A stretch of 62,025 nt of DNA from an uncultured virus (IMG/VR IMGVR_UViG_3300028840_007129) (lineage: Duplodnaviria; Heunggongvirae; Uroviricota; Caudoviricetes): IMG/VR virus record IMGVR_UViG_3300028840_007129; one strand, given 5' to 3'. The notes under the pieces were generated by a model that searched no databases, was not told where the DNA came from, and worked only from the letters and a program-made list of their open reading frames with translations. This document shows positions 35,692 to 53,584 of this stretch, one piece after another (the first letter of the stretch is position 1; each line of letters opens with the position of its first letter). The translations under genes and the position numbers were made by a program.

Positions 35692-35778
35692 TCAGACAGA
35701 CCCCGCCCGGTCACGCTTAACCCAGCGATCTATACGGTCACGTTTGACCCGGCGTACTATCTGAATTACAGTGCTCAT
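35692..35778 (-). CDS. leader peptide 1 (28 aa, leaderless mRNA)
   Basis: MSTVIQIVRRVKRDRIDRWVKRDRAGSV; ATG 7 nt after the -10 box; codons match cluster-1 tRNAs. Confidence 0.85.
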   Translation of the reverse strand: MSTVIQIVRRVKRDRIDRWVKRDRAGSV

Positions 35779-38335: not shown

Positions 38336-38344
38336 ACATCTCTA

Positions 38345-39146: not shown

Positions 39147-39155
39147 TCTAGAAAA

Positions 39156-39233
39156 TGGTGGGCGTACCTGGACTTGAACCAGGGAACCTCCTCCTTATCA
39201 GAGAGGCGTTCTAACCAGCTGAACTATACGCCC
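39156..39233 (-). tRNA. trnI: tRNA-Ile(GAT)
   Basis: CCTCT-CT GAT AA-GGAGG. Confidence 0.93.
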
Positions 39234-39240
39234 AGAATAA

Positions 39241-39324
39241 TGGGAGTGTAAGGATTCGAACCTTCCTAGTCGTAAGACAACGGATTTACAGTCCGCCCCA
39301 GCTCACCGCCTCTGGCGCACTCCC
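39241..39324 (-). tRNA. trnY: tRNA-Tyr(GTA)
   Basis: GCGGA-CT GTA AA-TCCGT; long variable arm (bacterial type). Confidence 0.92.
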
Positions 39325-39332
39325 TTAATGAC

Positions 39333-39410
39333 TGGTACCGGAGGGCGGCCTTGAACCGCCGACTGACATACCTTATGAGGGTACCGCACTACCAACTGTG
39401 CTACTCCGGT
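39333..39410 (-). tRNA. trnM: tRNA-Met(CAT), probably elongator
   Basis: GTACC-CT CAT AA-GGTAT. Confidence 0.85.
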
Positions 39411-39415
39411 AGAAA

Positions 39416-39490
39416 TGGTTGCGGGGGCCGGACTCGAACCGGCGACCTTCGGGTTATGAGCCCGAAAAGCTACCACTGCTACACCCCGCT
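39416..39490 (-). tRNA. trnfM: initiator tRNA-fMet(CAT)
   Basis: three consecutive G-C pairs in anticodon stem; 1:72 mismatch. Confidence 0.9.
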
Positions 39491-39505
39491 ATAACTTCTG
39501 ATTAA

Positions 39506-39589
39506 TGCTCAGGACTGGATTTGAACCAGCATGGAGTTGCCCCCACGAGCTCCTGAAACTCGCGTGTCTACCACTTCCACCACCTGAGC
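39506..39589 (-). tRNA. trnL: tRNA-Leu(CAG)
   Basis: CGAGT-TT CAG GA-GCTCG. Confidence 0.92.
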
Positions 39590-39596
39590 GAAATCT

Positions 39597-39674
39597 TGGG
39601 GTGATCGAGGGGTTTCGAACCCCCAACCTCTGGAGCCACAGTCCAGTGCTCTAACCTATTGAGCTACAATCACC
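39597..39674 (-). tRNA. trnH: tRNA-His(GTG)
   Basis: CTGGA-CT GTG GC-TCCAG; G-1:C73. Confidence 0.95.
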
Positions 39675-39698
39675 ATGTATGTTCTTGTACAACCCAGA

Positions 39699-39710
39699 AT
39701 GTCAAAGAAC
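39699..39710 (-). promoter_or_regulatory. boxA-like antitermination site
   Basis: GTTCTTTGACAT. Confidence 0.55.
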
Positions 39711-39711
39711 T

Positions 39712-39796
39712 TGGCGGAGAGACGGGGACTCGAACCCCGAAGGCCAATGGCCGGTAGTTTTCAAGACTACTGGATTACCGATTATCCTATCTCTCC
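39712..39796 (-). tRNA. trnS: tRNA-Ser(TGA)
   Basis: GTAGT-CT TGA AA-ACTAC. Confidence 0.92.
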
Positions 39797-39803
39797 ATAA
39801 AAG

Positions 39804-39888
39804 AGACGTGGACTGGATTTGAACCAGCGCGTGACTCCCGTCAAATGGTTTTGCAGACCACTGCCTTCGACCACTCGGCCACCACGTC
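39804..39888 (-). tRNA. trnC: tRNA-Cys(GCA) with atypical long variable arm
   Basis: GTGGT-CT GCA AA-ACCAT; U73; variable stem TGAC-GGGA-GTCA. Confidence 0.88.
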
Positions 39889-39893
39889 ATAAC

Positions 39894-39980
39894 TGGCAGA
39901 GGAGACAGGATTCGAACCTGTGGTGGTTTTGCCACATCGGTTTAGCAAACCGACGCCTTAAGCCTCTCGGCCACTCCTCC
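39894..39980 (-). tRNA. trnS: tRNA-Ser(GCT)
   Basis: TCGGT-TT GCT AA-ACCGA. Confidence 0.95.
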
Positions 39981-39989
39981 ATACTTTCA

Positions 39990-40072
39990 TGGCTGGGACA
40001 GGCATCGAACCTGCACGAGTTTTCCTCACCAGATCCTAGGTCTGGCGCGTATACCAATTCCGCCACCCAGCC
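39990..40072 (-). tRNA. trnL: tRNA-Leu(TAG)
   Basis: CCAGA-CC TAG GA-TCTGG (C33). Confidence 0.88.
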
Positions 40073-40077
40073 TTACT

Positions 40078-40162
40078 TGGTGCCCAGGGCCCGACTTGAA
40101 CGGGCACGAGTATTCTCAGCAGGGTTTGAGGCTGCCGCGTATACCAATTCCGCCACCTGGGC
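40078..40162 (-). tRNA. trnL: tRNA-Leu(CAA)
   Basis: GCAGC-CT CAA AC-CCTGC (C31:C39 mismatch). Confidence 0.85.
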
Positions 40163-40420
40163 TTATTTTCTTCTCGCTCGCCACTCTGGCATAGGCTCGT
40201 TTACAATTTGTTCTCCGCCATAGTACCATATAAGTGGTTTAGAGTCCCAATGATACTTCCAGTCCCTTATATTCCAAGGGTCATAGTATTTACGATAAGA
40301 CTTTCCATTTGGTACATTGTCAGAATTTCTGACCCTACGATTAGCCTCACGCTTCTTAAACTTGGTAGACTTTTTTCCGTAACCGTCTAAGAACCAGGGC
40401 TCTCTGTAAGACCTTGACAT
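40163..40420 (-). CDS. small basic protein
   Basis: MSRSYR...KREANRRVR...NGKSYRKYYDPWNIRDW; AAGGAG RBS. Confidence 0.75.
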   Translation of the reverse strand: MSRSYREPWFLDGYGKKSTKFKKREANRRVRNSDNVPNGKSYRKYYDPWNIRDWKYHWDSKPLIWYYGGEQIVNEPMPEWRARRK

Positions 40421-40441
40421 GCTGTAGCTCCTTATTGAGTG

Positions 40442-40450
40442 TTACAACAT
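40442..40450 (-). promoter_or_regulatory. uORF ML* within a start-occluding hairpin
   Basis: AAAGGAGG RBS; CATGTTGTA/TACAGCATG stem covers the next ATG. Confidence 0.6.
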
Positions 40451-40474
40451 GCGGTCCTCCTTTCTTATGTAAAA

Positions 40475-40821
40475 TGGTAGCCGGGACGGGACTCGAACCC
40501 GTACGGACACAAGGTCCATTGGATTTTCTTACCACTACAGTTTTCACTGCCAGAAAACTTCTGTTTGTGGTCTGGACTGTCTCTTTACCATGTCTTACGA
40601 TTTAGGTAGGGGGTGTACAGTCTCTACACTCGGTTTTTTAACCTAGCACGGGATTGCCATCAACATTACTTGGAAGGTTTCCCCGTTTTAGCCCCCTGCA
40701 TTAATACCGTTTCCGGCATTAAGCTCAATACGGTGTTTTTAGACCTATATCTTGCAACCGGAATAGGTCAGAAAAAACTCCTTTCAAAGTCCAAAGTGTC
40801 TACCAGTTCCACCACCCGGCC
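40475..40821 (-). tRNA. trnL: tRNA-Leu(TAA) interrupted by a group I intron (exons 40787-40821 and 40475-40527)
   Basis: TTGGA-CT T^AA AA-TCCAA after removing the intron. Confidence 0.9.
40528..40786 (-). ncRNA. group I intron (259 nt, no ORF)
   Basis: 5' exon ends in U with P1 GGACUU/GAGUUU; intron ends in G; P7-type GAGACUG...AAGAGACAGUCC. Confidence 0.88.
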
Positions 40822-40829
40822 ATCAAAAA

Positions 40830-40916
40830 TGGTGCGGTCGACTGGACTTGAACCAGCATGGAGTAGCCTCCACTAGGCCCTCAACCTAGCGCGTATACCA
40901 ATTCCACCACGACCGC
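40830..40916 (-). tRNA. trnL: tRNA-Leu(GAG)
   Basis: CTAGG-TT GAG GG-CCTAG. Confidence 0.95.
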
Positions 40917-40926
40917 AAAGTTAAAA

Positions 40927-41074
40927 GAGTCACACTCTAGTCATCGAGCACAATTTTTCACAGTTCTTGAGACTGTTGCCTGTACCAATTCGGCTATCCC
41001 CCCATAAAAATGGTGGGGGGAGAAGGAATTGAACCTTCATGAATGTACGCCCGCATAGTTAGGGAGTGTGACCC
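40927..41074 (-). ncRNA. circularly permuted tRNA-Leu(CAA)-like RNA
   Basis: T arm + TCCCCCC-A-CCA (41038-41011) precedes GGGGGGA + D arm + anticodon arm (41003-40960); flanks pair over 11 bp. Confidence 0.8.
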
Positions 41075-41079
41075 TAATA

Positions 41080-41090
41080 TTTCAAAGAAC
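41080..41090 (-). promoter_or_regulatory. boxA-like antitermination site
   Basis: GTTCTTTGAAA. Confidence 0.55.
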
Positions 41091-41092
41091 GA

Positions 41093-41168
<76 letters not shown>

Positions 41169-41210
41169 ACTAAAATCATCCTCCATGTATTACCCCAGTA
41201 CAACTCCTTA

Positions 41211-41247
41211 AAAACAAAAACCCCCGCCTGATTTCTCTGGCGGGGGT
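41211..41247 (-). terminator. attenuator 2 intrinsic terminator
   Basis: ACCCCCGCC-A-GA-GAAA-TC-A-GGCGGGGGT followed by TTTTGTTTT. Confidence 0.9.
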
Positions 41248-41274
41248 CCTCTGATTCCTTATTTTTGGTATCAG

Positions 41275-41385
41275 TTAGCTTGGATCCCCCGCCGTGCTTA
41301 GCATAATAAAATAGGAGCACAACGACAGACTAAGGTCCGCGTGTGAACTCCTTAAATGCATGCTTCTGGGGGTAACTGAACGCAT
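41275..41385 (-). CDS. leader peptide 2 (36 aa)
   Basis: AGGAG RBS; MRSVTPRSMHLRSSHADLSLSLCSYFIMLSTAGDPS; codons match cluster-2 tRNAs. Confidence 0.85.
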   Translation of the reverse strand: MRSVTPRSMHLRSSHADLSLSLCSYFIMLSTAGDPS

Positions 41386-41413
41386 AACTCCTACTTTGTT
41401 CAAATTCTCTGTA

Positions 41414-41442
41414 AGTATACATCAAATTCCGGGCCATGTCAA
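41414..41442 (-). promoter_or_regulatory. sigma70 promoter of tRNA cluster 2
   Basis: TTGACA-17-TATACT. Confidence 0.9.
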
Positions 41443-41583
41443 TAGAAAAAATGTTCTGACTAAAAAAAGGGGTCTTTGGCATCTACAGCCCTGATTGTCT
41501 TTCCATCTATTCTCAAGAATCTAAGTGGCTTGATAGCTGGATTAGGATTCTTCGGTTGTTCCTTCTGGCCCTCTCCGCCCCCT

Positions 41584-41988
41584 TTAGAAAGGTTTATATC
41601 GATATTTCCTCAGCACATATTTGAAGATGATGCTATTCAGTTCTCTAGTTGTCTTTGAACTTTGGACCCAGTCTTTGATATCGTCAGGATGGTCAGGCGG
41701 GTATATTCCGAGCTCTCTAATAATATCAAGGCCTTCTTCAGAATTGTAGTATTCAACGAGTTTCCAGAGTACCCGTTCGGTTCTCTTATTTAATGATATA
41801 ACCTCTCCGTTTCGATGTCTATTGCAAATGCCCAGTATATATTTCCATTGCTGGACACCACCAGATTTTCTCGTTATCTCACTAAATAAGTAGGAACGTA
41901 CACCAGTATAGAATGAGAGACGTTTGAGGCGAACTTCCTGTTCCATCTCTTCGTAATACTCTTCAAGAGTTTCCAAGGTCTTTTCCAT
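41584..41988 (-). CDS. hypothetical protein
   Basis: 134-aa ORF. Confidence 0.6.
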   Translation of the reverse strand: MEKTLETLEEYYEEMEQEVRLKRLSFYTGVRSYLFSEITRKSGGVQQWKYILGICNRHRNGEVISLNKRTERVLWKLVEYYNSEEGLDIIRELGIYPPDHPDDIKDWVQSSKTTRELNSIIFKYVLRKYRYKPF

Positions 41989-42037
41989 ATGTTCAGTTTT
42001 ACCTGAATAATGGTAGTAAAAGATTATTGAAAAATAA

Positions 42038-42109
42038 AGCCGGTATCCGGATTTGAACCGAAAACCTGCTGTTTACGAAACAGCTGCTCTACCTTTGAGC
42101 TATACCGGC
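42038..42109 (-). tRNA. trnT: tRNA-Thr(CGT)
   Basis: GCTGT-TT CGT AA-ACAGC. Confidence 0.92.
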
Positions 42110-42115
42110 AGAATA

Positions 42116-42193
42116 TGGAGCCGACAGCAGGAGTCGAACCCGCAACAACTTGAGTACAAATCAAGTGCTCTGAGCCATTTGAGCTATGTCGGC
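42116..42193 (-). tRNA. trnT: tRNA-Thr(TGT)
   Basis: CTTGA-TT TGT AC-TCAAG. Confidence 0.92.
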
Positions 42194-42210
42194 ACTGATA
42201 ATCTATTTAT

Positions 42211-42543
42211 ATGAACGACTTAGGTATGAAAACCGCTACAAAAGCCCCCGGAGAAAAGCTCATCAGCGGTGATGGCTACTATATGATAAAGCCCCCTAAG
42301 GGCTATAAGGGCAAGACTTACATAGATGGCCGGTACATTTATGAGCACCGGTATATTATGGAGAAAAAGCTTGGAAGGCCCCTAAAATATAATGAGAACA
42401 TAGATCACATAAATGGTAATAAATTGGACAACAGACCCTCGAATCTAAGGCTCCTCTCAAGGGCCAAGCACACTCAACATACAAAGCCCGCCAAAAAGGC
42501 CAGAAGTATCGTAGAGGCCTACCTCAAACTACAAGCCTCTTAG
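42211..42543 (+). CDS. HNH endonuclease
   Basis: YEHRYIME...HINGNKLDNRPSNL. Confidence 0.88.
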   Translation: MNDLGMKTATKAPGEKLISGDGYYMIKPPKGYKGKTYIDGRYIYEHRYIMEKKLGRPLKYNENIDHINGNKLDNRPSNLRLLSRAKHTQHTKPAKKARSIVEAYLKLQAS

Positions 42544-43844
42544 CCTCTACCCTTTTACCGATTTTTATATCTACAAAGACCGTCCCAGGGTTATCCTGGC
42601 CTGGCTGAATAATAGTGGTATTACCGAGTTTGGCCTTCCATGTATTACTCACCCACGGAGACTCGTGTATATGGCCGCAGAGGACGAGTAGCGGCTGTTC
42701 TCTTTCTATCCATTTTCTGACGGAATCTGACCCGACTCTCCTATAACCCAGACACACATCAAGGTTCAGGCCTGATGGGGGGCAATGAATCGCAGCTATT
42801 ACTTTCGGCCCTCCAGGAAATGTCTTGAGATCATCTTCAATGGTGCCCTTGTTCTTGAAATATTCATGGGGGTCTTCAACCACAACGAAGCCCCCATCGG
42901 TGACATCGACGGGCTTACCGGTATAGGGTTCCTCAAGAAACCATCCCTGATGGTCTATTTTGCATGCTGTTTTTAACCCGAAGCGATAATCAGGGACATA
43001 CCCATAAGCAGTAAAAAAGTAGCCGCCGAACCCCATTTACCGTCGTGCTTTCCGGCGCACAATCTCATCCATCACCGTCTGCGCATCCATCGAGGTATCC
43101 AGGCCAAGCCACTCCCCGAATTTGCGGACCGAGCACTCCGGCACCTGCGTTTCAAGCAGCCACATGAAATTGGGCGACAGACGTGCCAGGTGAATGGACG
43201 GTTATTCACCCCCTCCCCAGCAGGAACCCGTCATCCGCAAGCGCACCAATTACCCCTATGAGGAGGCAGTTGCCGGGGATCAACATTTAACATTGAGCAC
43301 CGAGACAATTTCTGCATTCATTCGTAAGCCATTATTATTTAATGAGTTGTCTTGGTTGTTGCCGGGAAATTATTTGCTGCTTGCCGATGCAACATTTAAC
43401 ATGCGGGTCTACGGGATTTAACACCATTGGCCTTCCTGAAGGCAAAAAACCTGCCGCCGATCGGGTTTGCTACCGGGAAACTCGGCGGGTACTTCCGGCG
43501 GGTTTTTGGGCTCGCGAACGTGCCCACAAGTGGCGGATTTTGAAGGACCCTACCGGGGTTTCATCGAGAAGAGACGCATATTCGAGGAGGTATCTCTTTC
43601 GGGTATAGATATCATCATTTCCGAAGAAAGCCAGGACCTTTATACCCGATTCGGAGCATTTTAGATAGAATTCCTTGAGGTAATTTCTTATGAATGCTTT
43701 TTGTTCTTTTAATATCTCAGGACCTTTTGGTAGAATATCTGCCCCAATATGAATAAGGTCTATACCGTTATCATAAGCATACTGATAGACATCATCGTAT
43801 TTTCTTTGATTGCCGTGAAGATCCGTAGCGTATAGAAATCTCAT
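42524..43844 (-). pseudogene. calcineurin-like metallophosphoesterase split by a 517-bp insertion
   Basis: N-half TDLHG, GAD, GNDD; C-half HCPP, LCGHIHE; removing the insert restores the frame (ETPVGFGGYFF). Confidence 0.85.
43030..43550 (-). mobile_element. foreign insertion flanked by GGGT direct repeat, with cos- or att-arm-like motifs
   Basis: GC-richer; GGGTCCT-17 bp-dyad TGGGC..GCCCA; ATGTTAAATGTTG x2; IHF-like AT-rich site. Confidence 0.6.
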
Positions 43845-43859
43845 GTAAAATCCTTTGAG

Positions 43860-43931
43860 AGCGACAGGCCGGGATTGAACCGGCGACATCTACCTTGGCA
43901 AGGTAGCATTCTACCACTGAATTACTGTCGC
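43860..43931 (-). tRNA. trnG: tRNA-Gly(GCC)
   Basis: CTACC-TT GCC AA-GGTAG. Confidence 0.95.
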
Positions 43932-43941
43932 AAAGGGTTAA

Positions 43942-44016
43942 TGGAGCGGGATGTCGGGTTCGAACCGACGGCGTCAACCTTGGAAGGGTTGCATTCTACC
44001 ACTGAATTAATCCCGC
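43942..44016 (-). tRNA. trnG: tRNA-Gly(TCC)
   Basis: CAACC-CT TCC AA-GGTTG. Confidence 0.95.
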
Positions 44017-44026
44017 TAGATTACAA

Positions 44027-44102
44027 TGGAGCGGAAGACGGGGTTCGAACCCGCGACAACCTGCTTGGGAAGCAGGAACTCTACCACCTGAGCTACTTCC
44101 GC
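44027..44102 (-). tRNA. trnG: tRNA-Gly(CCC)
   Basis: CCTGC-TT CCC AA-GCAGG. Confidence 0.95.
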
Positions 44103-44103
44103 A

Positions 44104-44256
44104 TCAGTCCCAAATATCATCCTCCTCATTATCCTCTAATGAAAACGTATCCATCTCAATACTCTGGTCTTCGTCGTCTTCGTCTACCTCATCATCAAAT
44201 CCGCTGAAGCAGCTCATCATTTCAAGATGGTGGCTCTCATAATCATCGTCATACAT
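44104..44256 (-). CDS. 50-aa extremely acidic peptide (not in ORF track)
   Basis: MYDDDYESHHLEMMSCFSGFDDEVDEDDEDQSIEMDTFSLEDNEEDDIWD. Confidence 0.55.
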   Translation of the reverse strand: MYDDDYESHHLEMMSCFSGFDDEVDEDDEDQSIEMDTFSLEDNEEDDIWD

Positions 44257-44421
44257 TTTATCTTTTCCCGGATGAAGGTTGCAGCTTACTTTTCAGCTGG
44301 ATCATACAATCGGGAAAAACCCTACGGCAAGATGAATTTTTCGCTTACAAGCAACTCTAATGTTCCCAACGGGTTACATTCATAATAATCTATCGATAAT
44401 GGGTATTATTTACAAAAAGTA

Positions 44422-44494
44422 TGGAACCAGTCGGGATCGAACCGACGACCTCCTGCTTGCAAAGCAGGCGCTCTCCCAATTGAGCTATGGCCCC
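44422..44494 (-). tRNA. trnA: tRNA-Ala(TGC)
   Basis: CCTGC-TT TGC AA-GCAGG; G3.U70. Confidence 0.95.
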
Positions 44495-44503
44495 ATAGAA
44501 AAA

Positions 44504-44560
44504 TGGAATCGGCCGGGATCGAACCGGCGACCTCAACGCTGCCAGCGTTGCTACGACCCC
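44504..44560 (-). tRNA. trnA: D-armless tRNA-Ala(GGC) (possibly pseudo)
   Basis: GGGGTCG-TAG-CAACG CT GGC AG CGTTG-AGGTC-T arm-CGATTCC-A; 57 nt. Confidence 0.75.
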
Positions 44561-44604
44561 AGGCGCTATTGATATGAGATCCTTCCATACTTTATTTTTC
44601 CGGT

Positions 44605-45015
44605 ATGGCAGACACACTTCTTCTTATCTCAGAATCTGGCGGCGGAGTCTTCAGGATTTCTACTGGCACTCTCAAAAATCCCGGTGATTTTCAGAGAGAT
44701 AAAACTATAGAAATCTCTGACCAGAATCCTTTTATGCTTTGGAATCTCCTCTATGAGATGGCATCCCTACCTATTCCTCGTCATCCCATCGAAACTAAGC
44801 CTGAAAAGGCTACAAGGGACGATGGCGAGTTCATGGGAATGACAGGAAAACAGGTCATAGATGAGGTGTACAAGCGCACGGGCATTCTCATAACTATAAG
44901 CCCTAAGAGCAAAGAACGAATTGTAAAAAAGGCTAAAGAGCTCATCGATCTTTCTCAGCTCCCCAAAAATGAGAATATAGCCTCGCCCGGAATTGAACCG
45001 GGGTGTACGGCTTGA
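44605..45015 (+). CDS. hypothetical protein sharing the rIIB C-terminal repeat domain
   Basis: MTGKQVIDEVYKRTGILITISPKSKERIVKKA. Confidence 0.7.
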   Translation: MADTLLLISESGGGVFRISTGTLKNPGDFQRDKTIEISDQNPFMLWNLLYEMASLPIPRHPIETKPEKATRDDGEFMGMTGKQVIDEVYKRTGILITISPKSKERIVKKAKELIDLSQLPKNENIASPGIEPGCTA

Positions 45016-45050
45016 AGGGCCGTTGGACTAGACCACTATCCTACGAGGCC
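44978..45050 (-). tRNA. trnE: tRNA-Glu(TTC)
   Basis: ACGGC-CC TTC AA-GCCGT (C33). Confidence 0.88.
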
Positions 45051-45376
45051 TTTTTTTCCACTGATGCCTTAAGAAGAGGGACAGCAATAGTCTTTATGAT
45101 TATTTCGAGGGCTTTTATGAAATAGGCCCTCTTGAATCTTCTTATTTTTAGGCCCCTCGTCGCTATAACACCATTTACCATAGCTGCAAGGTGCATCAAA
45201 TTAATCTGATGCTTTTCGGGATGGTCAGAGGTAATGGATAAAACCTTTTCTCTGGCTACATCAAGAGATAGTTGTTTTAGAAACTCCTGGTCTTCTTCAA
45301 ACCACAGGTCACTCACGCTTTCACGCATGAGCCCAAAAATCTCTTGCTGCAACTTCTCAATAGTTTCATTATTCAC
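45041..45376 (-). CDS. hypothetical protein
   Basis: 111 aa. Confidence 0.7.
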   Translation of the reverse strand: MNNETIEKLQQEIFGLMRESVSDLWFEEDQEFLKQLSLDVAREKVLSITSDHPEKHQINLMHLAAMVNGVIATRGLKIRRFKRAYFIKALEIIIKTIAVPLLKASVEKKAS

Positions 45377-45379
45377 TTT

Positions 45380-45610
45380 TCAGTCTCCTGCTGCCGTGGA
45401 ATCTGCTTGATTCACGAGTTTTTGGAACTGTTCAGCAGTCTGGATTCTTATTCTTTTTGAATCGCTATCCAGATTTTGGTCATTTTTAACATAGTTCCTG
45501 TACTCGGGCAGGATAACTCGTGTATAACTGTCTACAGCTTTGATGAAGGACCTATTCGAGGAGCAGCTAACAAGGGATAGAATCGAAACAACAACGATTA
45601 TACGCTTCAT
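45380..45610 (-). CDS. lipoprotein
   Basis: signal peptide with lipobox LVS-C. Confidence 0.75.
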   Translation of the reverse strand: MKRIIVVVSILSLVSCSSNRSFIKAVDSYTRVILPEYRNYVKNDQNLDSDSKRIRIQTAEQFQKLVNQADSTAAGD

Positions 45611-45628
45611 GTTTACCCCTTATTGTAA

Positions 45629-45705
45629 TGGAGCCCACGATCGGGCTTGAACCGATGAACCTCATCCTTACCAAGGATGTGCTCTACCAACTGAGCTACA
45701 TGGGC
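45629..45705 (-). tRNA. trnT: tRNA-Thr(GGT)
   Basis: CATCC-TT GGT AA-GGATG. Confidence 0.95.
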
Positions 45706-45726
45706 TTTATCGAGTATCGATACAAT

Positions 45727-46500
45727 CTAAAATTCGAACTTCTGACCTTTACTAACAAAGCCAGAAAAACCGTCAGCTCTTGCATCGGGAAGGTCTTTGA
45801 GGGTGTTGTAATGATAGAGCCATATTTTCTTTTTCAACTCTGGTGCCAGGGTCTTTAAGTCCTCATAATGCGCGTGGACCCCGCTCTGATGTTGTGATGT
45901 CTCACAGTCATGGAAAACGACATCAGCCCCTTTTATGAAGTCTTTCAGCTGAGTCGGGGCAAATTGGGTATCTGAAGTTATAAAGATTGATGTCCCACTG
46001 ATAGGATCCTTAAATTTCAATCCGAAAGATTTCACAAAAGTAGCATCAGCAATAACGTGTATAGTTTGAACAGGTTTGAATACGCACCCATCAAATTCGA
46101 ATGAAGCATTGTTGGGAACCCCGACCGTATCAAAGAAGGTCTCCAGAGTGGCATCCTTAAGCTGAATGGAATCCAAGCCACCCCGCAAGGATTGATTCCA
46201 AAGGTCTTTGATTAACATGGAATTTGCAAACAACTTTGGCCTGAATCCCGTGTTTACGGTCTTGCAGAAGTAATTCAGAAAGGCCATGTATTCCAGGCCG
46301 CCGATGTGGTCCGCATGAAGATGAGAGACATAGATAGCATCTATGTCTAAAGCTGAAAGGCCCTGCTCTTTCAAGGACCATCTAATATCTCCCCCACAAT
46401 CAAAGAGCATTTTCTTTCCGGAAGGGGTCTGAATAAGAGCGTTCGATTGGAAATTGTCCATACAGAATGCGGATCCGCTACCAAGAAAAGTTAAAATCAT
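45727..46500 (-). CDS. metallo-beta-lactamase-fold hydrolase (RNase Z/BN-like)
   Basis: FLGSGSAF, DCG, SHLHADHIGG, TSDT, HDCE, LYHY. Confidence 0.85.
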   Translation of the reverse strand: MILTFLGSGSAFCMDNFQSNALIQTPSGKKMLFDCGGDIRWSLKEQGLSALDIDAIYVSHLHADHIGGLEYMAFLNYFCKTVNTGFRPKLFANSMLIKDLWNQSLRGGLDSIQLKDATLETFFDTVGVPNNASFEFDGCVFKPVQTIHVIADATFVKSFGLKFKDPISGTSIFITSDTQFAPTQLKDFIKGADVVFHDCETSQHQSGVHAHYEDLKTLAPELKKKIWLYHYNTLKDLPDARADGFSGFVSKGQKFEF

Positions 46501-47009
46501 TCTTCTTCTCCTATCAATAGGTCGATAGCTTTTTTAACGTCTTCCTTACGTATACCCTTCCTGCTATCCGTTTTAACAAGTCTATCCATATGCGGGGGTA
46601 TATCGTAAGAGTCATCATCGAGAACAATATAGCTATCGATCTCGAATCCATTCTTCTTGGCGTTATCTAACCAGAAGTCTATCTCTGAGCCTCGACCGAA
46701 AGGCTTACCATCTTTTTTATCCTCTTCCTTCTCATTTATTGAAAAAGATGGCGTTTTGCCTATGATGCTGGATCCATCAAATGGTTCCGGATTAGCCACA
46801 TAACAACCCCAACGGTCGCCCCCACTGCAGAAAAGCTCTTTGAGATTGTTAACCGTCAGGCCCTTCCTCCAGGTGCTCGTTACTACGATTTTAGCACCTG
46901 TACGTTCCAGGATGGTGTTAAGACGTCTCATACAGATAGGGTCAAAATAGCAGAATCTTGTCCTGTCCGTACAGACGACACCATCGATATCAAGGAAGAT
47001 AATTTTCAT
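46497..47009 (-). CDS. HAD-family phosphatase (RNA-repair-associated type)
   Basis: IFLDIDGV, VTSTWR, RGSEI, YIVLDD. Confidence 0.82.
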   Translation of the reverse strand: MKIIFLDIDGVVCTDRTRFCYFDPICMRRLNTILERTGAKIVVTSTWRKGLTVNNLKELFCSGGDRWGCYVANPEPFDGSSIIGKTPSFSINEKEEDKKDGKPFGRGSEIDFWLDNAKKNGFEIDSYIVLDDDSYDIPPHMDRLVKTDSRKGIRKEDVKKAIDLLIGEEE

Positions 47010-47209
47010 GGTACCAGTTCTGTTGATATTCTTAATCTTGCACTTATAGGTAGCGCTTCGTTAAGGTGCTTTATTATTAATGAGCACCCCATTGGGGCAT
47101 GTGATGATATCGTAGCTGTCCCTGAGAAGTTTTTCTGTCATAAGATACTTCTCTATGTCGATTAGGGATACGATACCCAACACGTTATCCAAAAAGAGCT
47201 CCTTATTTT

Positions 47210-47282
47210 TAGCCCCGACGGGAATTGAACCCATGTCTGATGGTTGAGAACCATCTATCCTAGACCACTAGACGACGAGGCC
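47210..47282 (-). tRNA. trnE: tRNA-Glu(CTC)
   Basis: GATGG-TT CTC AA-CCATC. Confidence 0.93.
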
Positions 47283-47296
47283 TAATTTCAAAAATT

Positions 47297-47373
47297 TGGC
47301 TGGGAGGGTGGGGGTCGAACCCACGACCGCGTGATTAACAGTCACGAGCTACTGCCAACTGAGCTACCTCCCA
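47297..47373 (-). tRNA. trnN: tRNA-Asn(GTT)
   Basis: CGTGA-CT GTT AA-TCACG. Confidence 0.93.
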
Positions 47374-47410
47374 GTATCAAATGATAGGTACTTTATCAGC
47401 AGAAATAAAG

Positions 47411-47423
47411 ATGTCAAAGAACA
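47411..47423 (-). promoter_or_regulatory. boxA-like site directly after attenuator 3
   Basis: TGTTCTTTGACAT. Confidence 0.6.
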
Positions 47424-47457
47424 AAATAAAAAAGGCTCCCCGGTTCAGGGAGCCTTT
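47423..47457 (-). terminator. attenuator 3 intrinsic terminator
   Basis: AAAGGCTCCC-TGAACCG-GGGAGCCTTT followed by TTTATTTT. Confidence 0.9.
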
Positions 47458-47484
47458 GGATCTTCGGATGGAAACAAAGACTCC

Positions 47485-47565
47485 CTATAGGTACAGTCCT
47501 TCCGTACCATTGGCCTCGGTGGCCGCGTTATTAAGGACTGATGTCAGGGAGTTCTTTGTCTTCAT
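47485..47565 (-). CDS. leader peptide 3 (26 aa)
   Basis: GAGG RBS; MKTKNSLTSVLNNAATEANGTEGLYL; codons match cluster-3 tRNAs. Confidence 0.85.
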   Translation of the reverse strand: MKTKNSLTSVLNNAATEANGTEGLYL

Positions 47566-47588
47566 AATGACCTCTATGGTTCGCTATT

Positions 47589-47617
47589 AGTATACACCTT
47601 TTCAGAACTAAAATCAA
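47589..47617 (-). promoter_or_regulatory. sigma70 promoter of tRNA cluster 3
   Basis: TTGATT-17-TATACT. Confidence 0.8.
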
Positions 47618-49209
47618 GGGGTATTATCAATTAAGTTATAAGCTATTATCCTCAAATTAGATGCAAGAGTCTTTTTACCGCCAAATTGCTTGAGTAATTC
47701 TTTCTTTGCCCTTGATTTCGTTAATCTTTTACCTTTCTCAGCATAGTCGTCTGCAATATCAGTCAGAAGTTTTTTTGCTTTCCCTACATCCGGTCCTGAC
47801 TTCAGGCCTAAAAGTTTCATTATTTCTTTTCCATCGAGTACGGGCTCAGCTTTGATTGGTAATTTTCTGGCTTCCTCTATTTTTTTTCGGAGATCCGGGA
47901 TATTTTCTGAACTAGGTATCCTACCTAATTCATCTGCACGGGAGAGGTCTAAGACGGCATCTATTGTCTCCTCGCCGACATCCCGGACGAACTTTCTTAG
48001 AGTTTTCACTGAAGGCTTATCCCCAATACGGTGAGCCCTCATATGATATTTAACCATCTTTTTTACTTTATCGATGGTTTTGTTATCGAATTTGAGCCTC
48101 TTCAGAATAGCTGCAGCAATTTCAGAACCAACGTCGTCATGCCCATAGAAAGTAATCTTATCCTCTAAGAGATCTTGAGTTTTAGGTTTTCCAATATCAT
48201 GGAGTAGCGCGGCTAACTGAGACTCTATGCCCGGTTTCGTGTTATCGAGGACCATCAGGGTGTGCCTATAAACATCCCCCTCTGAATGGTGTTTCTCTGG
48301 TTGTTTTACCCCCTTGAGGGCTTCAACCTCAGGAAGCACATGTTTGAGGAGACCCGTAGCGCTCATGATTTTGACAGCTTTTTTCAGCTTACCCAATTTC
48401 ATTATTTTTTCGAGTTCTTCTTTTATTCTCTCAGAAGATATGATCTCTATTCGGTCAGCGTTCCTTTTAACCGTTTTGAGAACAGAGCGTGGTATATCCC
48501 AGCCATACTTGGCCTGAAACCTGATGAGGCGCAGCATCCGAAGGGGGTCATCATTAAATATTTTATCCAGGGATACGCCAGGATGACCCCTGAGAATACC
48601 TTTAGCGATGTCTTCCTTACTTACACCGGTAGCATCTTCGATTTCTCCCGTGGTCATATCCTTCAAAAGCATATTTACTGTGAAGTCCCTACGTTCTATA
48701 TCCTCCTTGAGGTCCGCTGGTAAGGTCTGTCTCTGTCTTGAAGATGGGTCAGGAAATACCTCTTTCATTGTATCAGCAAACTCGATGACAGCGCCACGCG
48801 TATGGTACTTTTCACTCTTGTAGGTAATGTCCTTTTTGAAGGTTATCTGCCAAATGGGGTATCCTTTTCCAAGCTGTCTGGGCTTAGATACCGGGTTATT
48901 CGAGGTTCCAGAGAAGAGCTCTTTTACCTTATCCCATAGAGTTTTTTTATTAAAAGTATCATAGATAAAATTAGTGACCTTCTCGGCCCCGTCTCTCATA
49001 TTCACTACTATGTCCAAATCTTTGGACTCAATAGATGGATCATTCTTAATAAGGCTGAGGTACTCATCTCTTACATACCCGCCTACAGCCTTTAGTTTAC
49101 CGGCAAACTCTGTTCCTGGCAGGAAAGATTTTAGGAATCTCTCTACTTCTTTTTCAGCACTTGTAGATATCAGATGCAAGTATGCCTCTACTATTCTTTG
49201 GGCTCTCAT
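47614..49209 (-). CDS. cca: CCA-adding tRNA nucleotidyltransferase with HD domain
   Basis: VGGYVRD, KDLDI, RRDFTVN, DDPLRMLR, ERIKEEL, LLHDIGK; adjacent to tRNA array. Confidence 0.9.
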   Translation of the reverse strand: MRAQRIVEAYLHLISTSAEKEVERFLKSFLPGTEFAGKLKAVGGYVRDEYLSLIKNDPSIESKDLDIVVNMRDGAEKVTNFIYDTFNKKTLWDKVKELFSGTSNNPVSKPRQLGKGYPIWQITFKKDITYKSEKYHTRGAVIEFADTMKEVFPDPSSRQRQTLPADLKEDIERRDFTVNMLLKDMTTGEIEDATGVSKEDIAKGILRGHPGVSLDKIFNDDPLRMLRLIRFQAKYGWDIPRSVLKTVKRNADRIEIISSERIKEELEKIMKLGKLKKAVKIMSATGLLKHVLPEVEALKGVKQPEKHHSEGDVYRHTLMVLDNTKPGIESQLAALLHDIGKPKTQDLLEDKITFYGHDDVGSEIAAAILKRLKFDNKTIDKVKKMVKYHMRAHRIGDKPSVKTLRKFVRDVGEETIDAVLDLSRADELGRIPSSENIPDLRKKIEEARKLPIKAEPVLDGKEIMKLLGLKSGPDVGKAKKLLTDIADDYAEKGKRLTKSRAKKELLKQFGGKKTLASNLRIIAYNLIDNTP

Positions 49210-49324
49210 GATAATCTCCTTTGCAGAGCCGCAATTATAAAAAGATAATTTCTTTATTAACTCATTGGCAATATTAGAGTTATTATCTATTAATCTCCCC
49301 TATATATAAAAAGGGGGGATAATA

Positions 49325-49852
49325 ATGCTTGATAATCTATGGTCGGCTATAAAAAAGATAGCTACTCTTTCAACTTATTCAGTAGAGGACCTGGTTGAGG
49401 TTCTCAGTAAATTGGAGGACTTTTTAAAAGAGGAACCCGCTGAAAGTTTCATAAAGGAGTCTTCACAATGCCTCTCTTTTAAATTTGAGAATATACCCCT
49501 TTATATAAACCCTCAGTCTATTTTAAGGCTTAAGGATACCCTCTCTGAATATCCCGGTGTCTTCAGGTCGGGGGTTGATGTTGTTCCTAATATTAAACCC
49601 AGTTTTCTTCATTTACTTGGCCAATTTCTTGTAGTAATAGATTCAAAGCTCAGTTGTATGGGTTTTAATAAGAACAGTAACGACCCTATCAATAAAGCTC
49701 TAAAAGAATTACATAAAATATGGGGTTCGGGAAAAAGTATGAGAGCTGATTCTTTAATATTTAGATTTAAGGGTAAGAGTAATTCAGAGGCTAGAACCGA
49801 CCTTTTAAAAAGAATAAATGAGTCAAAAAAAGTTCTTTTGAACATCATCTGA
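49325..49852 (+). CDS. hypothetical protein
   Basis: 175 aa with G-rich RBS. Confidence 0.7.
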   Translation: MLDNLWSAIKKIATLSTYSVEDLVEVLSKLEDFLKEEPAESFIKESSQCLSFKFENIPLYINPQSILRLKDTLSEYPGVFRSGVDVVPNIKPSFLHLLGQFLVVIDSKLSCMGFNKNSNDPINKALKELHKIWGSGKSMRADSLIFRFKGKSNSEARTDLLKRINESKKVLLNII

Positions 49853-50052
49853 GGAATCCTCTCGTTTATGAGAGGAGCATCTTTTTTCGGAAAGAGGGCA
49901 GATAGCAGTCATGACTATGAACCATGACCTCTCCTCTTCGCAGTACGTTAATCGCGCCTACTACGTCAGCGTGATTCCCGTAACCGCAGTCCAGGCACCG
50001 GAAAATCTCCCCGTGGCGGTTCTCCTTATGTCTGGCTCCGCAAGCAGGTTCT
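49847..50052 (-). pseudogene. tnpB: tnpB C-terminal remnant with right-end-like sequence
   Basis: CGARHKENRHGEIFRCLDCGYGNHADVVGAINVLRRG (Zn ribbon + RuvC-III), then hairpin and TTCCTCAG. Confidence 0.75.
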
Positions 50053-50499: not shown

Positions 50500-51155
50500 G
50501 AGACGTTACCAGAATCATAGACAGGATAATCAAAGCGGACCCGTCTTCCGAGACCGATCTCGTCTCTCTGCGTAGGAAGTTCAGAAGATACCCTCATAAG
50601 AAAGAGGCCTATTGGAAAGAGCTCGTTGACTACCTCGGTTCCAAGTATGCACAGGGTCATCCGAAAAGGGATGAGATCAGAAAGATTCTTATAGGAACTC
50701 CAAAAAAGGTAATCAAGAAAAACTATACCTTTGAAGAAGTGTCCCCGAAAGACTGCATAGTCGGGCTTATTCCTGAGAATATTTCCGATAAAATAAAGGC
50801 ATATGACCGAAAGAGTATCGAACTAGCTAAGAAGCAGGTAGAAGCTAACCTCACTCGGAATACTGAGTTAATAATAGAGGTATCCAGAAAAGGATATCTC
50901 CTTGAGATATATCTTAAAAAAATATGGGTAGAGGTTAAGGATCACTTTGGTCTCTGGGATAAACCGGAGGGCTTTGTAATAAAAAAGAAGGATTCATTAT
51001 TATACCTGGCAGTGCTCCCTCAGGAAGTTGTTCAGAGAAAACCTATGAGCTTCATAGGTGGGGACCCCAGGGCTATAATGGATTTCCTGAAGAAATTAGG
51101 CTTTTCTGGAGGAAATGATGAAGAAGATGCTCAGGAAGGTGATAGCGACCTTTAG
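50496..51155 (+). CDS. hypothetical protein
   Basis: start MRDVTR overlapping the upstream stop. Confidence 0.75.
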   Translation: MRDVTRIIDRIIKADPSSETDLVSLRRKFRRYPHKKEAYWKELVDYLGSKYAQGHPKRDEIRKILIGTPKKVIKKNYTFEEVSPKDCIVGLIPENISDKIKAYDRKSIELAKKQVEANLTRNTELIIEVSRKGYLLEIYLKKIWVEVKDHFGLWDKPEGFVIKKKDSLLYLAVLPQEVVQRKPMSFIGGDPRAIMDFLKKLGFSGGNDEEDAQEGDSDL

Positions 51156-51705
51156 AGAAAAAACAGCTCACGACTTCAGTTGCTTGATGTGTGACCTTCC
51201 TCTAGACATCGCGTTTGAGGTCATCAGCTGGGGTAAGCACATCATCCCAGAAAAAGATCTGGCTTCAAACGGCCGGGAGACCCAAATACACGTTACTGTG
51301 AAATATGGGATACACATCTCAGACTTTACGGAAATTCGGAATTACTTCTATAACTGCAAGCCATTTTATATTATCCTAGGAAGTACACAATTCTTTTCAA
51401 ATGACGAGCATGATGTTATTTATCTGCCCGTCTCTTCTCCTGAACTCCATCAGTTGAATGGTATAGTTTCATCATCCTTCAAGAATACTGATACCCACCC
51501 GGAATATATTCCCCATATTACTATAGCCTATGTTAAAGCTGGTCTTGGGCCTCGGTATAATAATCTCTCAAGATTTGATGGAAAAAAGGTCCTGATCAGT
51601 TCTGCAATATTTTCAGGAAGGGATAACCGAGAGACAACCTTCAACTTTTTCGATTATGATACTCTTCATAAAGCCTTCGAGATAGGCAATAAGGTGTCAC
51701 AATGA
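51115..51705 (+). CDS. 2H phosphoesterase (2'-5' RNA ligase superfamily; Acb1-like candidate)
   Basis: HVTVKYG and YIPHITIAY. Confidence 0.8.
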   Translation: MMKKMLRKVIATFREKTAHDFSCLMCDLPLDIAFEVISWGKHIIPEKDLASNGRETQIHVTVKYGIHISDFTEIRNYFYNCKPFYIILGSTQFFSNDEHDVIYLPVSSPELHQLNGIVSSSFKNTDTHPEYIPHITIAYVKAGLGPRYNNLSRFDGKKVLISSAIFSGRDNRETTFNFFDYDTLHKAFEIGNKVSQ

Positions 51706-52007
51706 TAGAAGCTAAGAACGTTGATGCTTTCCTTGAGTGCGTGAGTGAGTTTAATAGTGAGGCTCTATATCCGACAGATCTTAAAGAAGCTATTATTGGA
51801 ATAGTAGAACGTTTCGGTATGGAGCCCATTGTGCTCTTAGATAAGGACAAGTGCCTTGAAATCTATATGAAGCGCGATGGAATGACCTATGATGAGGCAT
51901 TGGAGTTCTTCGATTTTAACGTAATCGGATCCTGGATGGGTGAGGGCACTCCTGCCTTTGCTACTCTGATTAAAACTGACGAATCCCATCAAACTTCAGA
52001 AGAATAG
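51702..52007 (+). CDS. hypothetical phage protein
   Basis: MTYDEALEFFDFNVIGSWMGEGTP. Confidence 0.75.
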   Translation: MIEAKNVDAFLECVSEFNSEALYPTDLKEAIIGIVERFGMEPIVLLDKDKCLEIYMKRDGMTYDEALEFFDFNVIGSWMGEGTPAFATLIKTDESHQTSEE

Positions 52008-52683
52008 GCGGTCTTCCCAGTCTCGTTTTTCTTTCCTTTTTTGGCCCCTTTGTTATCTGCCTGATTTTATATGATGCCATTATTTTTCTCCTGAAGTTTG
52101 CCGTTATCATCTTCTTTCCGAGTACCGACTCGTATACTGATTGTAACCGACTCCAGGTGAACCTTTCCGGAACAAGGGCAAAGGCGATCGGGGAATATAA
52201 AATTTTTCCTCTTAATCTTGATAACAGGTCGGATAGGATCTCCTTATGGTCGAATGCAAGCTCAGGGAGTTCCCTGAATGAGAACCATTGAGCTTCTTTT
52301 GCATCACTATCGGCTGTGATCTTCTGTTCCTGGAAGGCTTCCCAAGGTATTAAAGCAAAATAGGCTACCGTTATTACTCTCGTTCTTGGATCTCTTTCGG
52401 GGTCACCATATGTTTTCAGTTGTTCTAAATAGATATCATGTAGATTAGTCTCTTCTCTTAGCTCCCTCATGGCTGTCTCTTCAAGAGTTTCCTTCTTATC
52501 TACTTCCAAGAAGCCCCCCGGAATAGCCCAGCAATCCCTGTAGGGAGGGTACTTTCTTTTTATAAGAAGGACCTTAAGGATGCCACCAATTATAGTACAG
52601 ATAGCTATATCAACTGTAACTGAAGGCTTCTTATATCTGTTCTCGTCATAATTAGAGAGGTCATCTTTGAGGTCTTCAGGCAT
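51970..52683 (-). CDS. nrtR: Nudix + wHTH regulator (NrtR-like)
   Basis: WAIPGGF...AMRELREET, RDPR, LAFDH, NFRRK, GRPP. Confidence 0.85.
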   Translation of the reverse strand: MPEDLKDDLSNYDENRYKKPSVTVDIAICTIIGGILKVLLIKRKYPPYRDCWAIPGGFLEVDKKETLEETAMRELREETNLHDIYLEQLKTYGDPERDPRTRVITVAYFALIPWEAFQEQKITADSDAKEAQWFSFRELPELAFDHKEILSDLLSRLRGKILYSPIAFALVPERFTWSRLQSVYESVLGKKMITANFRRKIMASYKIRQITKGPKKERKTRLGRPPILLKFDGIRQF

Positions 52684-53584
52684 TTTTCTCTCCGAGTGCG
52701 TCATATATGATTTCTTCGAGATGGTCTACTCGATGTATTGCTGCGTGTCCGTTATGAACGGTTCTCAAACCTCTAATAGCTATTCTTTCTCTTTCTCGGT
52801 CATTCTTAAGATAATACCTAATTTTGTCTACAGCCTCTTCTAAGCTATCATAATAGACTATATCTTTATCCTCGGTGAAAATAGACCCAATACCAGTGTC
52901 TATCTGAAGTCTATCTGTAATTACCAATTTTCCACATGCCGCTCCCTCGAATATTCTCCTGGTTATCTCTTTGTATTGAGAACATTGAAAAACCATCTTA
53001 CTGCTGCACATAAAGTCTACGTATTCTTTTCCCCTGAGATATCGTGTATTAGTAAAAGAAAGACCCAGTCTATTCTTAATTCCCTCTGTCAGACCATTCC
53101 CTCTCGGACCACAGGTGGTAACACAATCGTAAACAATAGGGCATTCCCTATTAACCCTGAAAAGGCCCGTATCTGCATGTTGGGGCCACCAGAAAGATGG
53201 TTTCCCATATTCTTTATAACGAAGACTGCACTGATAATCGGGGGTAAGAACAATATCGAACTTATCTATTTTATTTGCATTAGCGACGAACCTCTGTGGG
53301 TCATCACCGGCTTCAAGTACAAAAAGGGATGAAGGACTGAGTTCTCTAGTGAATAGGGGACTATCGAACTGACCAAAGTCCATCTGAAAGACTACGTCAT
53401 ATTTGATAGATCCACTTTTTATTAGGAAATCTACTACGCATTCTGTTGAATAATTAACTGAGTTTCTCTGGAAAAGATTATAATGATGAACTAAATGACC
53501 CCTGTTTTCAAGCTCCCTATGAATCCCAATAGGGGTAGACCATATATCCTCTGGTCCCTTAGCATAGAACATCGCAATGTTCAT
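52676..53584 (-). CDS. glycosyltransferase (GT-B, CgeB-like)
   Basis: RRIFEGAACG...YYLKNDRERERIA. Confidence 0.82.
   Translation of the reverse strand: MNIAMFYAKGPEDIWSTPIGIHRELENRGHLVHHYNLFQRNSVNYSTECVVDFLIKSGSIKYDVVFQMDFGQFDSPLFTRELSPSSLFVLEAGDDPQRFVANANKIDKFDIVLTPDYQCSLRYKEYGKPSFWWPQHADTGLFRVNRECPIVYDCVTTCGPRGNGLTEGIKNRLGLSFTNTRYLRGKEYVDFMCSSKMVFQCSQYKEITRRIFEGAACGKLVITDRLQIDTGIGSIFTEDKDIVYYDSLEEAVDKIRYYLKNDRERERIAIRGLRTVHNGHAAIHRVDHLEEIIYDALGEKNA

Follow-up and report, generated by a model that had tools for sequence, protein, structure and literature searches.

Here, we describe att3 (attenuator 3), a candidate regulatory element in a 62,025-nt stretch of DNA from an uncultured virus of the Caudoviricetes (IMG/VR record IMGVR_UViG_3300028840_007129), which we call the window throughout. 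Att3 lies on the minus strand between cca, a tRNA nucleotidyltransferase gene (47614–49209), and a tRNA-Asn gene (47297–47373). We find that att3 is probably a multivalent, ribosome-mediated (leader-peptide) transcription attenuator that gates an operon of ten tRNA genes plus accessory genes, a design that would make tRNA supply follow demand. It carries all the parts of a classical attenuator, with their order and spacing right. An original prediction, made from the sequence alone, had placed an attenuator sensing Asn, Ala, Thr, Glu and Gly before this operon; codon statistics, antiterminator complementarity, ribosome-footprint geometry and recurrence in other phages support it, whereas its count of Ala genes, its suggestion of an independent origin and its label of RNA repair fare less well. 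The sequence parts, complementarity, statistics, geometry and recurrence reported below were computed.

The predicted unit begins with a sigma-70-like promoter-like site, TTGATT-17-TATACT (47589..47617, minus strand; 9 of 12 positions matched), whose −35 hexamer starts at 47617 and overlaps the cca stop codon TGA at 47616..47614, as had been pointed out in the original prediction. A Shine–Dalgarno sequence read from the DNA, AGAGG (47571..47575), stands 5 nt upstream of the ATG of a leader open reading frame (ORF), MKTKNSLTSVLNNAATEANGTEGLYL, that comprises 26 codons plus TAG and extends from the ATG at 47565 to the TAG at 47487..47485 (47485..47565). Codons 12–23 of this ORF (N N A A T E A N G T E G; 47497..47532) are the candidate control codons and lie in the loop of a hairpin, 1:2. 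Region 1 of this hairpin covers codons 3–11 (47533..47559) and supplies the arms ACAAAGAACTCCCTG and CAGTCCTT; region 2 (47474..47499) supplies AAGGACTG and TAGGGAGTCTTTGT and includes the stop codon. By folding and complementarity, region 2 has two alternative partners: region 1 and, over 47488..47475, region 3. Region 3 (AAAGGCTCCCTG; 47446..47457) is the 5′ arm of a predicted intrinsic terminator, and region 4 (47421..47442) consists of its 3′ arm and the T-tract (TTTTTTATTTTG). The terminator hairpin (47457..47431) has 12 bp, seven of them G–C, followed by T6AT4, and ranks top among 29 terminator-like sites in 17 kb, a span in which shuffled sequences yield 15.7 ± 4.4 sites. The plus strand folds about equally well (z = −4.5) but has no T-tract after the stem, so the polarity of the element is fixed by its minus-strand features; an opposite-strand ORF (47381–47590, 69 amino acids) has no Pfam match. 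None of the Rfam amino-acid leader families reaches its gathering threshold over att3, the best being Phe_leader at 28.8 bits against 55 (E = 0.29, 47426–47498), and, within positions 33000–50000, the T-box covariance model has no match among Rfam rows with E up to 1.

The leader codons link att3 to the genes behind it. Up to the next promoter, the downstream tRNA genes are, in order, Asn(GTT), Glu(CTC), Thr(GGT), Glu(TTC), Ala(TGC), Gly(CCC, TCC, GCC) and Thr(TGT, CGT). The original prediction had listed Asn, two Glu, three Thr, two Ala and three Gly genes, which ARAGORN and Rfam reproduce except for Ala, for which they find one gene, Ala(TGC), only. All 12 of codons 12–23 encode Asn, Ala, Thr, Glu or Gly, the amino acids of these ten tRNAs. 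The codons had been quoted correctly (AAT AAC GCG GCC ACC GAG GCC AAT GGT ACG GAA GGA, exact on the minus strand), as had two earlier ACA codons, which are present at positions 3 and 8, and GGG is indeed the only codon of a downstream anticodon that the leader lacks, nine of the ten anticodons having a cognate leader codon. This pattern goes beyond chance: none of the 701 ATG-started ORFs of 15–45 codons in the window reaches a run of this length, and 1 in 50,000 random ORFs drawn from the codon usage of the window does so, against a background share of 0.27 for the five amino acids. When small minus-strand ORFs were scanned for amino-acid agreement with the next 5, 8 or 10 tRNAs, the att3 leader ranked 1/64, 1/64 and 1/52, respectively. 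Two further predicted attenuators in the window, att2 and att1, have leaders that between them took second and third place when 5 or 8 tRNAs were considered. With 10 tRNAs, att2 came second and att1 was unlisted because just nine tRNAs follow it.

The predicted RNA structures are compatible with a switch. The minimum-energy fold of a 166-nt stretch (−64.5 kcal/mol, z = −5.66, with 0 of 200 shuffles equally stable) contains both the 1:2 hairpin and the 3:4 terminator that had been drawn in the original prediction, and according to the folding model these two form in the state without a ribosome. The alternative 2:3 pairing, likewise proposed there, joins ATAGGGAGTCTTTG with AAAGGCTCCCTG through 12 pairs; this duplex of regions 2 and 3 has a predicted energy of −18.0 kcal/mol (z = −3.7, 2 of 1,000 shuffles as good). 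Computed as hairpins, 2:3, 3:4 and 1:2 come to −21.3, −19.3 and −36.9 kcal/mol, respectively. To relate these structures to the leader codons, we used a footprint model in which the ribosome occupies the span from −12 to +15 nt relative to the first base of the P site, with pairing across the ribosome disallowed. With the A site at any of codons 2–23, 11–12 of the 12 antiterminator pairs are spared, and codon 23 is the final position at which a stall keeps the antiterminator almost whole (11 of 12 pairs). Codons 24, 25 and 26 (Leu, Tyr and Leu, unmatched to the tRNAs) spare 8, 4 and 2 pairs, and a ribosome at the stop codon, which lies inside region 2, spares 0 of 12. The matched run thus ends exactly where stalls lose their effect.

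From these parts we infer promoter use, ORF translation, pausing, kinetic competition between structures and feedback, and propose the following mechanism. Transcription would begin at the TTGATT-17-TATACT site or enter from cca, whose transcripts, without a terminator between cca and att3, would run on into the attenuator. Hairpin 1:2 would form and, by analogy with trp, the polymerase would pause until a ribosome loads on the leader. With Asn-, Ala-, Thr-, Glu- and Gly-tRNAs plentiful, the ribosome would reach the TAG; as the stop codon is inside region 2, the terminating ribosome would cover that region, 3:4 would pair and transcription would stop at the T-tract near 47425. With any one of these aminoacyl-tRNAs in short supply, the ribosome would stall within codons 12–23, blocking the inner 1:2 stem and leaving region 2 free, and the free region 2 would form the 12-bp 2:3 antiterminator before region 4 exists, so that the polymerase could proceed into the tRNA genes. 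The new tRNAs would then relieve the stall, closing a negative feedback loop that matches tRNA supply to demand. Since the products of att3 are tRNAs that decode its own control codons, the feedback would act on decoding rate, and the signal is likely to be decoding rate, that is tRNA supply, rather than amino-acid starvation as such.

Several observations weigh against this reading. At the strict codon level, 13 of the 25 codons of the att3 leader match its tRNAs, at most 5 of them in succession, the weakest result among the three leaders of the window; this fraction is reached by 2 of the 701 small ORFs and by 120 of the 50,000 random ORFs, and a codon-level scan of 84 small ORFs does not place att3 in its top 8. 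For the peptide that it encodes, the synonymous choice in att3 equals random expectation (mean 13.06 readable codons, 13 in att3), and two of the three leader Ala codons are GCC, which the phage tRNA-Ala(UGC) cannot read under standard wobble. The att3 match therefore holds at the level of amino acids, not at that of synonymous codons. The control codons are in the 1:2 loop and outside region 1. A purely thermodynamic model that allows pairing around the stalled ribosome re-forms 1:2 at codons 16, 18 and 23, and the terminator is always the lowest-energy state once region 4 has been made. The switch must therefore be kinetic, as in classical cases. In the mechanism proposed here, a ribosome in the loop would block the inner stem (CAGTCCTT with AAGGACTG), which otherwise nucleates 1:2, and the short-range 2:3 pairing would win. 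No diverged orthologue of att3 that would allow a covariation test was found; the tRNA sequences of relatives are too divergent for exact-pattern scans. Finally, a second promoter-like site past the terminator could bypass the switch and drive the tRNAs constitutively, a point taken up below.

The attenuator reading is also supported by recurrence of the design, including within the window. On the same strand, att2 (unit 41216–41442) has a promoter at 41442, an ORF at 41385..41275 and a terminator near 41251..41216, and precedes a cluster of Phe, four Leu, four Ser, Cys, His, two Met, Tyr, Ile and two Arg(AGR) tRNAs. Att1 (unit 35636–35814, also minus strand) has a promoter at 35814, an ORF at 35778..35692 and a terminator that ends 9 nt before tRNA-Lys. 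The att2 leader matches its own cluster at 23 of 35 codons and covers 16 of 16 anticodons; the att1 leader matches at 20 of 27 codons with a run of 18 and covers all nine. Against foreign clusters, the leaders of the window match just 3–7 codons, and for att3 itself the tRNAs of its own cluster would read 13 of 25 codons, compared with 7 and 3 for the other two clusters. Att1 and att2 have the terminator loop and 3′ arm in common. The ATG of att1 is 7 nt after the −10 element, and its leader mRNA would thus be leaderless, as would those of two units in other records (L014 and L015).

Related units appear in other phages. In each of three related contigs found through cca relatives at 60–66% identity (L028, L014 and L015), an Asn–Gln–Pro tRNA cluster is preceded by a promoter, an Asn-, Gln- and Pro-rich leader and a terminator. 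A 466-kb viral record found through a relative of the MBL hydrolase gene described below (G001; 67% identity) has 47 tRNAs and four such units, with leaders rich in F/D/M/I/S, E/G/R, K/V/R and N/P/Q that each precede exactly those tRNAs; in its leader-by-cluster matrix the diagonal reads 16/23, 11/19, 11/21 and 11/26, and the off-diagonal values are 0–4. Where the same tRNA genes stand in different clusters, the leader codons go with them: AGA and AGG codons accompany tRNA-Arg(TCT/CCT) in leader 2 of the window and in the E/G/R leader of G001, Asp codons accompany their tRNA in unit 1 of the window and the F/D/M/I/S unit of G001, and Asn codons do so in att3 and the N/P/Q unit. In 10 of the 11 units examined, the 5′ arm of the terminator is complementary, beyond what shuffled sequences give, to a segment that includes the stop codon or lies shortly upstream of it (no more than 16 of 1,000 shuffles as good); the eleventh unit gives 56 of 1,000. 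The matched run ends upstream of the region 2 segment in all 11. Pooled over seven leaders, synonymous codons favour the tRNAs of their own unit (105 against 93.9 ± 2.7, reached in 2 of 20,000 shuffles).

Five further phage records, drawn from the listed matches to a sequence motif described below, again contain terminator-before-tRNA units with matched leaders, for example MTYFICKFEEYMTWEGSRD before Ile, Tyr, Phe, Glu, Lys, Lys, Met and Cys tRNAs and MFNYIQNEYRKLPQG before Tyr, Gln, Ile, Met, Asn, Arg and Glu tRNAs; the exceptions are one poorly matched unit (run of 5) and one that precedes an uninformative cluster of 29 tRNAs. The −35 TTG and −10 TATA.T are invariant in the six units aligned (att3 and five from other records). 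A block after the T-tract, TTG.TCTTTGACA, is common to att3, the unit of L028 and the E/G/R and N/P/Q units of G001, and the E/G/R unit of G001 shares further downstream bases with att3. Att3 had been described as unrelated to att1 and att2 and perhaps of independent origin; it is unlike both, but the shared promoter positions and the TTG.TCTTTGACA block leave the independent origin unsupported, and att3 is, by these sequence comparisons, a member of a wider attenuator family. Genes called as tRNA-Met(CAT) (34407–34483, minus strand, in the window; 16653–16727 in L034) stand in clusters whose leaders bear ATA codons (two in att1, three in the E/G/R leader of G001), and these may be tRNA-Ile2 (lysidine) genes.

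We next consider explanations other than a codon-matched attenuator. The one that survives best, which we nevertheless regard as unlikely, is a genuine translation-coupled switch that is unspecific to amino acid or tRNA and reports general translation capacity or infection timing, the N/A/T/E/G content being secondary. Such a switch would be consistent with the ribosome-free default of 1:2 plus terminator, with the finding that model stalls anywhere in codons 2–23, including the non-matching K, S, L and V codons of positions 2–11, free the antiterminator, and with the absence of synonymous-codon tuning in att3. It would not account for a matched run far beyond chance, for the pairing, in the window as in other records, of each cluster with a separate leader and a separate set of amino acids, or for the synonymous bias of the seven pooled leaders.

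A slightly less probable explanation is a terminator-plus-promoter cassette of the PeSL type, in which the hairpin ends cca transcription, the site TTGACA-16-TAAAGT drives the tRNAs and the small ORF is non-regulatory. The site in question (47417..47390, minus strand) matches 10 of 12 positions and has a TG; it stands 17 nt before tRNA-Asn, with the −10-like TGATAAAGT at 16 nt. It forms part of a junction (47390..47420) that begins with the motif TCTTTGACA (47420..47412) directly past the terminator and may represent either a bypass promoter or a conserved junction element. In favour of the cassette, PeSL elements, consisting of a strong sigma-70-like promoter and a stem-loop terminator, are described for T4-type phages (PMC2839356), the window contains rIIA and rIIB genes, and other phages conserve the TTGACA hexamer that follows the T-tract.

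The behaviour of the motif in those phages argues the other way. A scan of viral contigs for the block TTG.TCTTTGACA matched at least 119 stretches, and in 8 of the 119, among the matches listed, a tRNA on the same strand begins 3–52 nt after the motif. Seven of these eight loci have a hairpin of −17 kcal/mol or stronger directly before the motif, the remaining one (L082) having −9.2 kcal/mol, and five of the records that contain these loci have 21–39 tRNA matches each. In six of the eight, again among the matches listed, the tRNA begins only 3–16 nt after TTGACA, so the hexamer cannot be the −35 element for that tRNA, and most of the motif-bearing loci have no −10 on reading their sequences. 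An ordinary −35 role for TCTTTGACA in relatives was accordingly rejected, the motif adjoining the tRNA too closely. Att1 is equally hard to reconcile with a cassette: its terminator, 9 nt from the first tRNA, leaves no room for a second promoter, so its tRNAs must be read through the terminator. The cassette also leaves unexplained the matched run of 12 codons, the antiterminator complementarity, the coincidence of the end of the run with the footprint boundary, and the way in which leader codons track tRNA content in other units.

The motif itself may mark a recombination junction or a processing site, or may be left over from a PeSL-like element. The window has two copies of the exact 9-mer (in the form GTTCTTTGACAT), at 47412–47420 after att3 and at 39700–39708 between tRNA-Ser and tRNA-His, both on the minus strand. 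It stands right after attenuator T-tracts in several unrelated phage records; the motif records are L028, L034, L044, L064, L084, L110 and L111.

That the small ORF encodes a functional micro-protein, or that the terminated leader RNA is a small RNA whose place before the tRNAs is incidental, is very improbable: the ORF does have a good Shine–Dalgarno site and promoter, and terminated leader RNAs can reportedly act in trans in other bacteria, as in studies of rnTrpL, but the leader peptides of different units are alike only in the amino-acid classes of their own tRNA clusters and no Rfam family reaches threshold over att3. Each of these explanations fails on the matched run, on the geometry or on the leaders that track tRNA content; we prefer the attenuator.

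The presumed operon behind att3 starts with tRNA-Asn(GTT) and tRNA-Glu(CTC) (47210..47373, minus strand; ARAGORN and Rfam). These are followed on the same strand by a HAD_SAK_2 gene (46497–47009; Pfam 1.8e-24), an Apyc1-like MBL hydrolase gene (45727–46500; Pfam 1.2e-27, 97.4 bits against a cut-off of 50) and a remainder (42038..45705) that holds the tRNAs from Thr(GGT) through Thr(CGT), small ORFs with no family match and two metallophosphoesterase-like pieces. The two pieces (42524–43036 and 43470–43889, minus strand) are in different frames and about 430 nt apart, with many stops between them, and both score below the Pfam cut-off; they could represent a broken gene or a gene with an intervening element. 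The HAD, MBL and metallophosphoesterase genes named in the original prediction are thus found downstream on the same strand, the last as two weak pieces. The claim that att3 controls RNA-repair enzymes holds less well, because Pfam assigns the MBL protein to the Apyc1 (anti-Pycsar) type, which is not evidently RNA repair, and the metallophosphoesterase pieces are sub-cut-off. On this family assignment, the MBL gene is likely to be an anti-defence gene rather than one for an RNA-repair enzyme. No conserved gene context was found for the relatives of the HAD and MBL genes.

Between 47431 and 41220 on the minus strand, no strong terminator was found apart from tRNA-linked hairpins, and the sole other promoter-like site within the unit on this strand is a 9 of 12 match at 44330. 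Directly after the last tRNA of the unit, Thr(CGT), stands a T-run, TTTATTTTT (42030–42038, minus strand). The 3′ stems of tRNA-Thr(CGT) might themselves serve as the operon terminator, and one transcript from 47.58 to 42.03 kb is possible.

A broader scheme can be put forward, which we offer tentatively and consider less likely than not to hold. The phage would run its tRNA supply as demand-driven circuits, with one codon-matched stall sensor per cluster, and unit 3 would also wire in the Apyc1-like hydrolase, the HAD 'Swiss-army-knife' domain of RNA-repair type and the phosphoesterase pieces. Ribosome stalls arising from tRNA-cleaving host immunity, or from the decay of host tRNAs in the course of infection, would then serve as an alarm that turns on replacement tRNAs along with genes for counter-defence or repair.

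The window belongs to a large phage and carries rIIA and rIIB, a tape-measure-like gene, the tRNA nucleotidyltransferase gene and NAD-salvage genes (Pfam and PHROG). ARAGORN finds 36 tRNA genes, all on the minus strand at 34.3–47.4 kb; Rfam gives 35 tRNA matches and one match of the tRNA-Sec model on the Tyr gene, at the same 36 places and none beyond. Two metagenome contigs (L012 and L013) are near-identical to the window, with 5 and 2 differing positions overall and zero within att3. A blastn search of 601 bases against the phage GenBank collection returned tRNA-Asn-like matches only, at 76–81% identity, and no relative of the leader. Of the sequencing runs listed for this DNA, none is recorded as RNA. 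The cca gene upstream of att3 (47614..49209, minus strand) encodes a tRNA nucleotidyltransferase with an HD domain, as identified from its ORF, from Pfam (PolyA_pol, PolyA_pol_RNAbd, HD and tRNA_NucTran2_2) and from PHROG (tRNA nucleotidyltransferase, 8.8e-59). No tRNAs were found near its relatives in viral contigs L001–L004, and in L028 no attenuator was found behind the cca gene. Just upstream of the cca region, on the opposite strand, is a gene for a 2′-5′ RNA ligase superfamily protein with a weak Acb1-like match (51115–51705, plus strand). NUDIX hydrolase, NAD synthetase and nicotinate phosphoribosyltransferase genes (51970–52704, 58127–58930 and 58940–60133, minus strand) make up the phage NAD-salvage set. 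TAG recoding, which would lengthen the leader ORF, was rejected, since 6 of the 56 long frames end in TAG and no suppressor tRNA is encoded in the window. Amber-suppressor-type tRNAs (anticodon CTA) are present in three related or motif-bearing records (L034, 3361–3437; L154; L158); the window has none, and TAG is a stop codon in it.

If att3 works as proposed, large phages would regulate big tRNA arrays cluster by cluster through decoding-rate feedback rather than constitutively, and att3 would be a compact natural sensor for the supply of specific tRNAs. The presence of Apyc1-like and RNA-repair-type genes in the presumed operon allows a direct test of whether host defence that targets tRNAs is linked to phage counter-measures, and the joint movement of leader codons and tRNA genes across phages offers a clean natural experiment on how sensor and output co-evolve.

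Leader-peptide attenuation is a textbook mechanism for amino-acid biosynthesis; full-text literature searches, whose coverage left out most subscription journals, returned no paper on leader-peptide attenuation of tRNA genes. Multivalent leaders are known from enterobacteria, in which the thr leader responds to Thr and Ile, and the ilvGMEDA and ilvBN leaders to Ile, Leu and Val. Like these attenuators, att3 combines a promoter, a short leader rich in particular amino acids, 1:2, 2:3 and 3:4 alternatives, a stop codon at which a terminating ribosome would cover region 2, an intrinsic terminator and several amino acids per leader. In contrast to them, it is phage-encoded, would sense five amino acids and would gate tRNA genes and phage accessory enzymes instead of biosynthetic enzymes; its control codons, unlike those of enterobacterial attenuators including trp, lie mostly in the 1:2 loop rather than in region 1, and it matches no Rfam leader family. 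The pheST attenuator, with its pheM leader, places phenylalanyl-tRNA synthetase under leader-peptide control by the supply of its own aminoacyl-tRNA. Att3 would similarly control a component of the translation apparatus in response to aminoacyl-tRNA supply, whereas pheST is a chromosomal system that responds to one amino acid and controls a synthetase. T-box riboswitches bind uncharged tRNA directly and need no translation; att3 resembles them as a predicted terminator/antiterminator switch that would respond to specific tRNA pools, and differs from them in having an ORF and no T-box match. With PeSL cassettes (PMC2839356), att3 shares a stem-loop terminator joined to a TTGACA-type hexamer and a setting in a large, rII-bearing phage. 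The PeSLs described there lack a translated leader, an antiterminator and a link to tRNA genes, unlike att3, and in most relatives of att3, in contrast to a PeSL, the hexamer has no usable −10 or is too near the tRNA. The terminator–promoter cassette of T4-type phages is the nearest described counterpart of the TCTTTGACA junction (PMC2839356).

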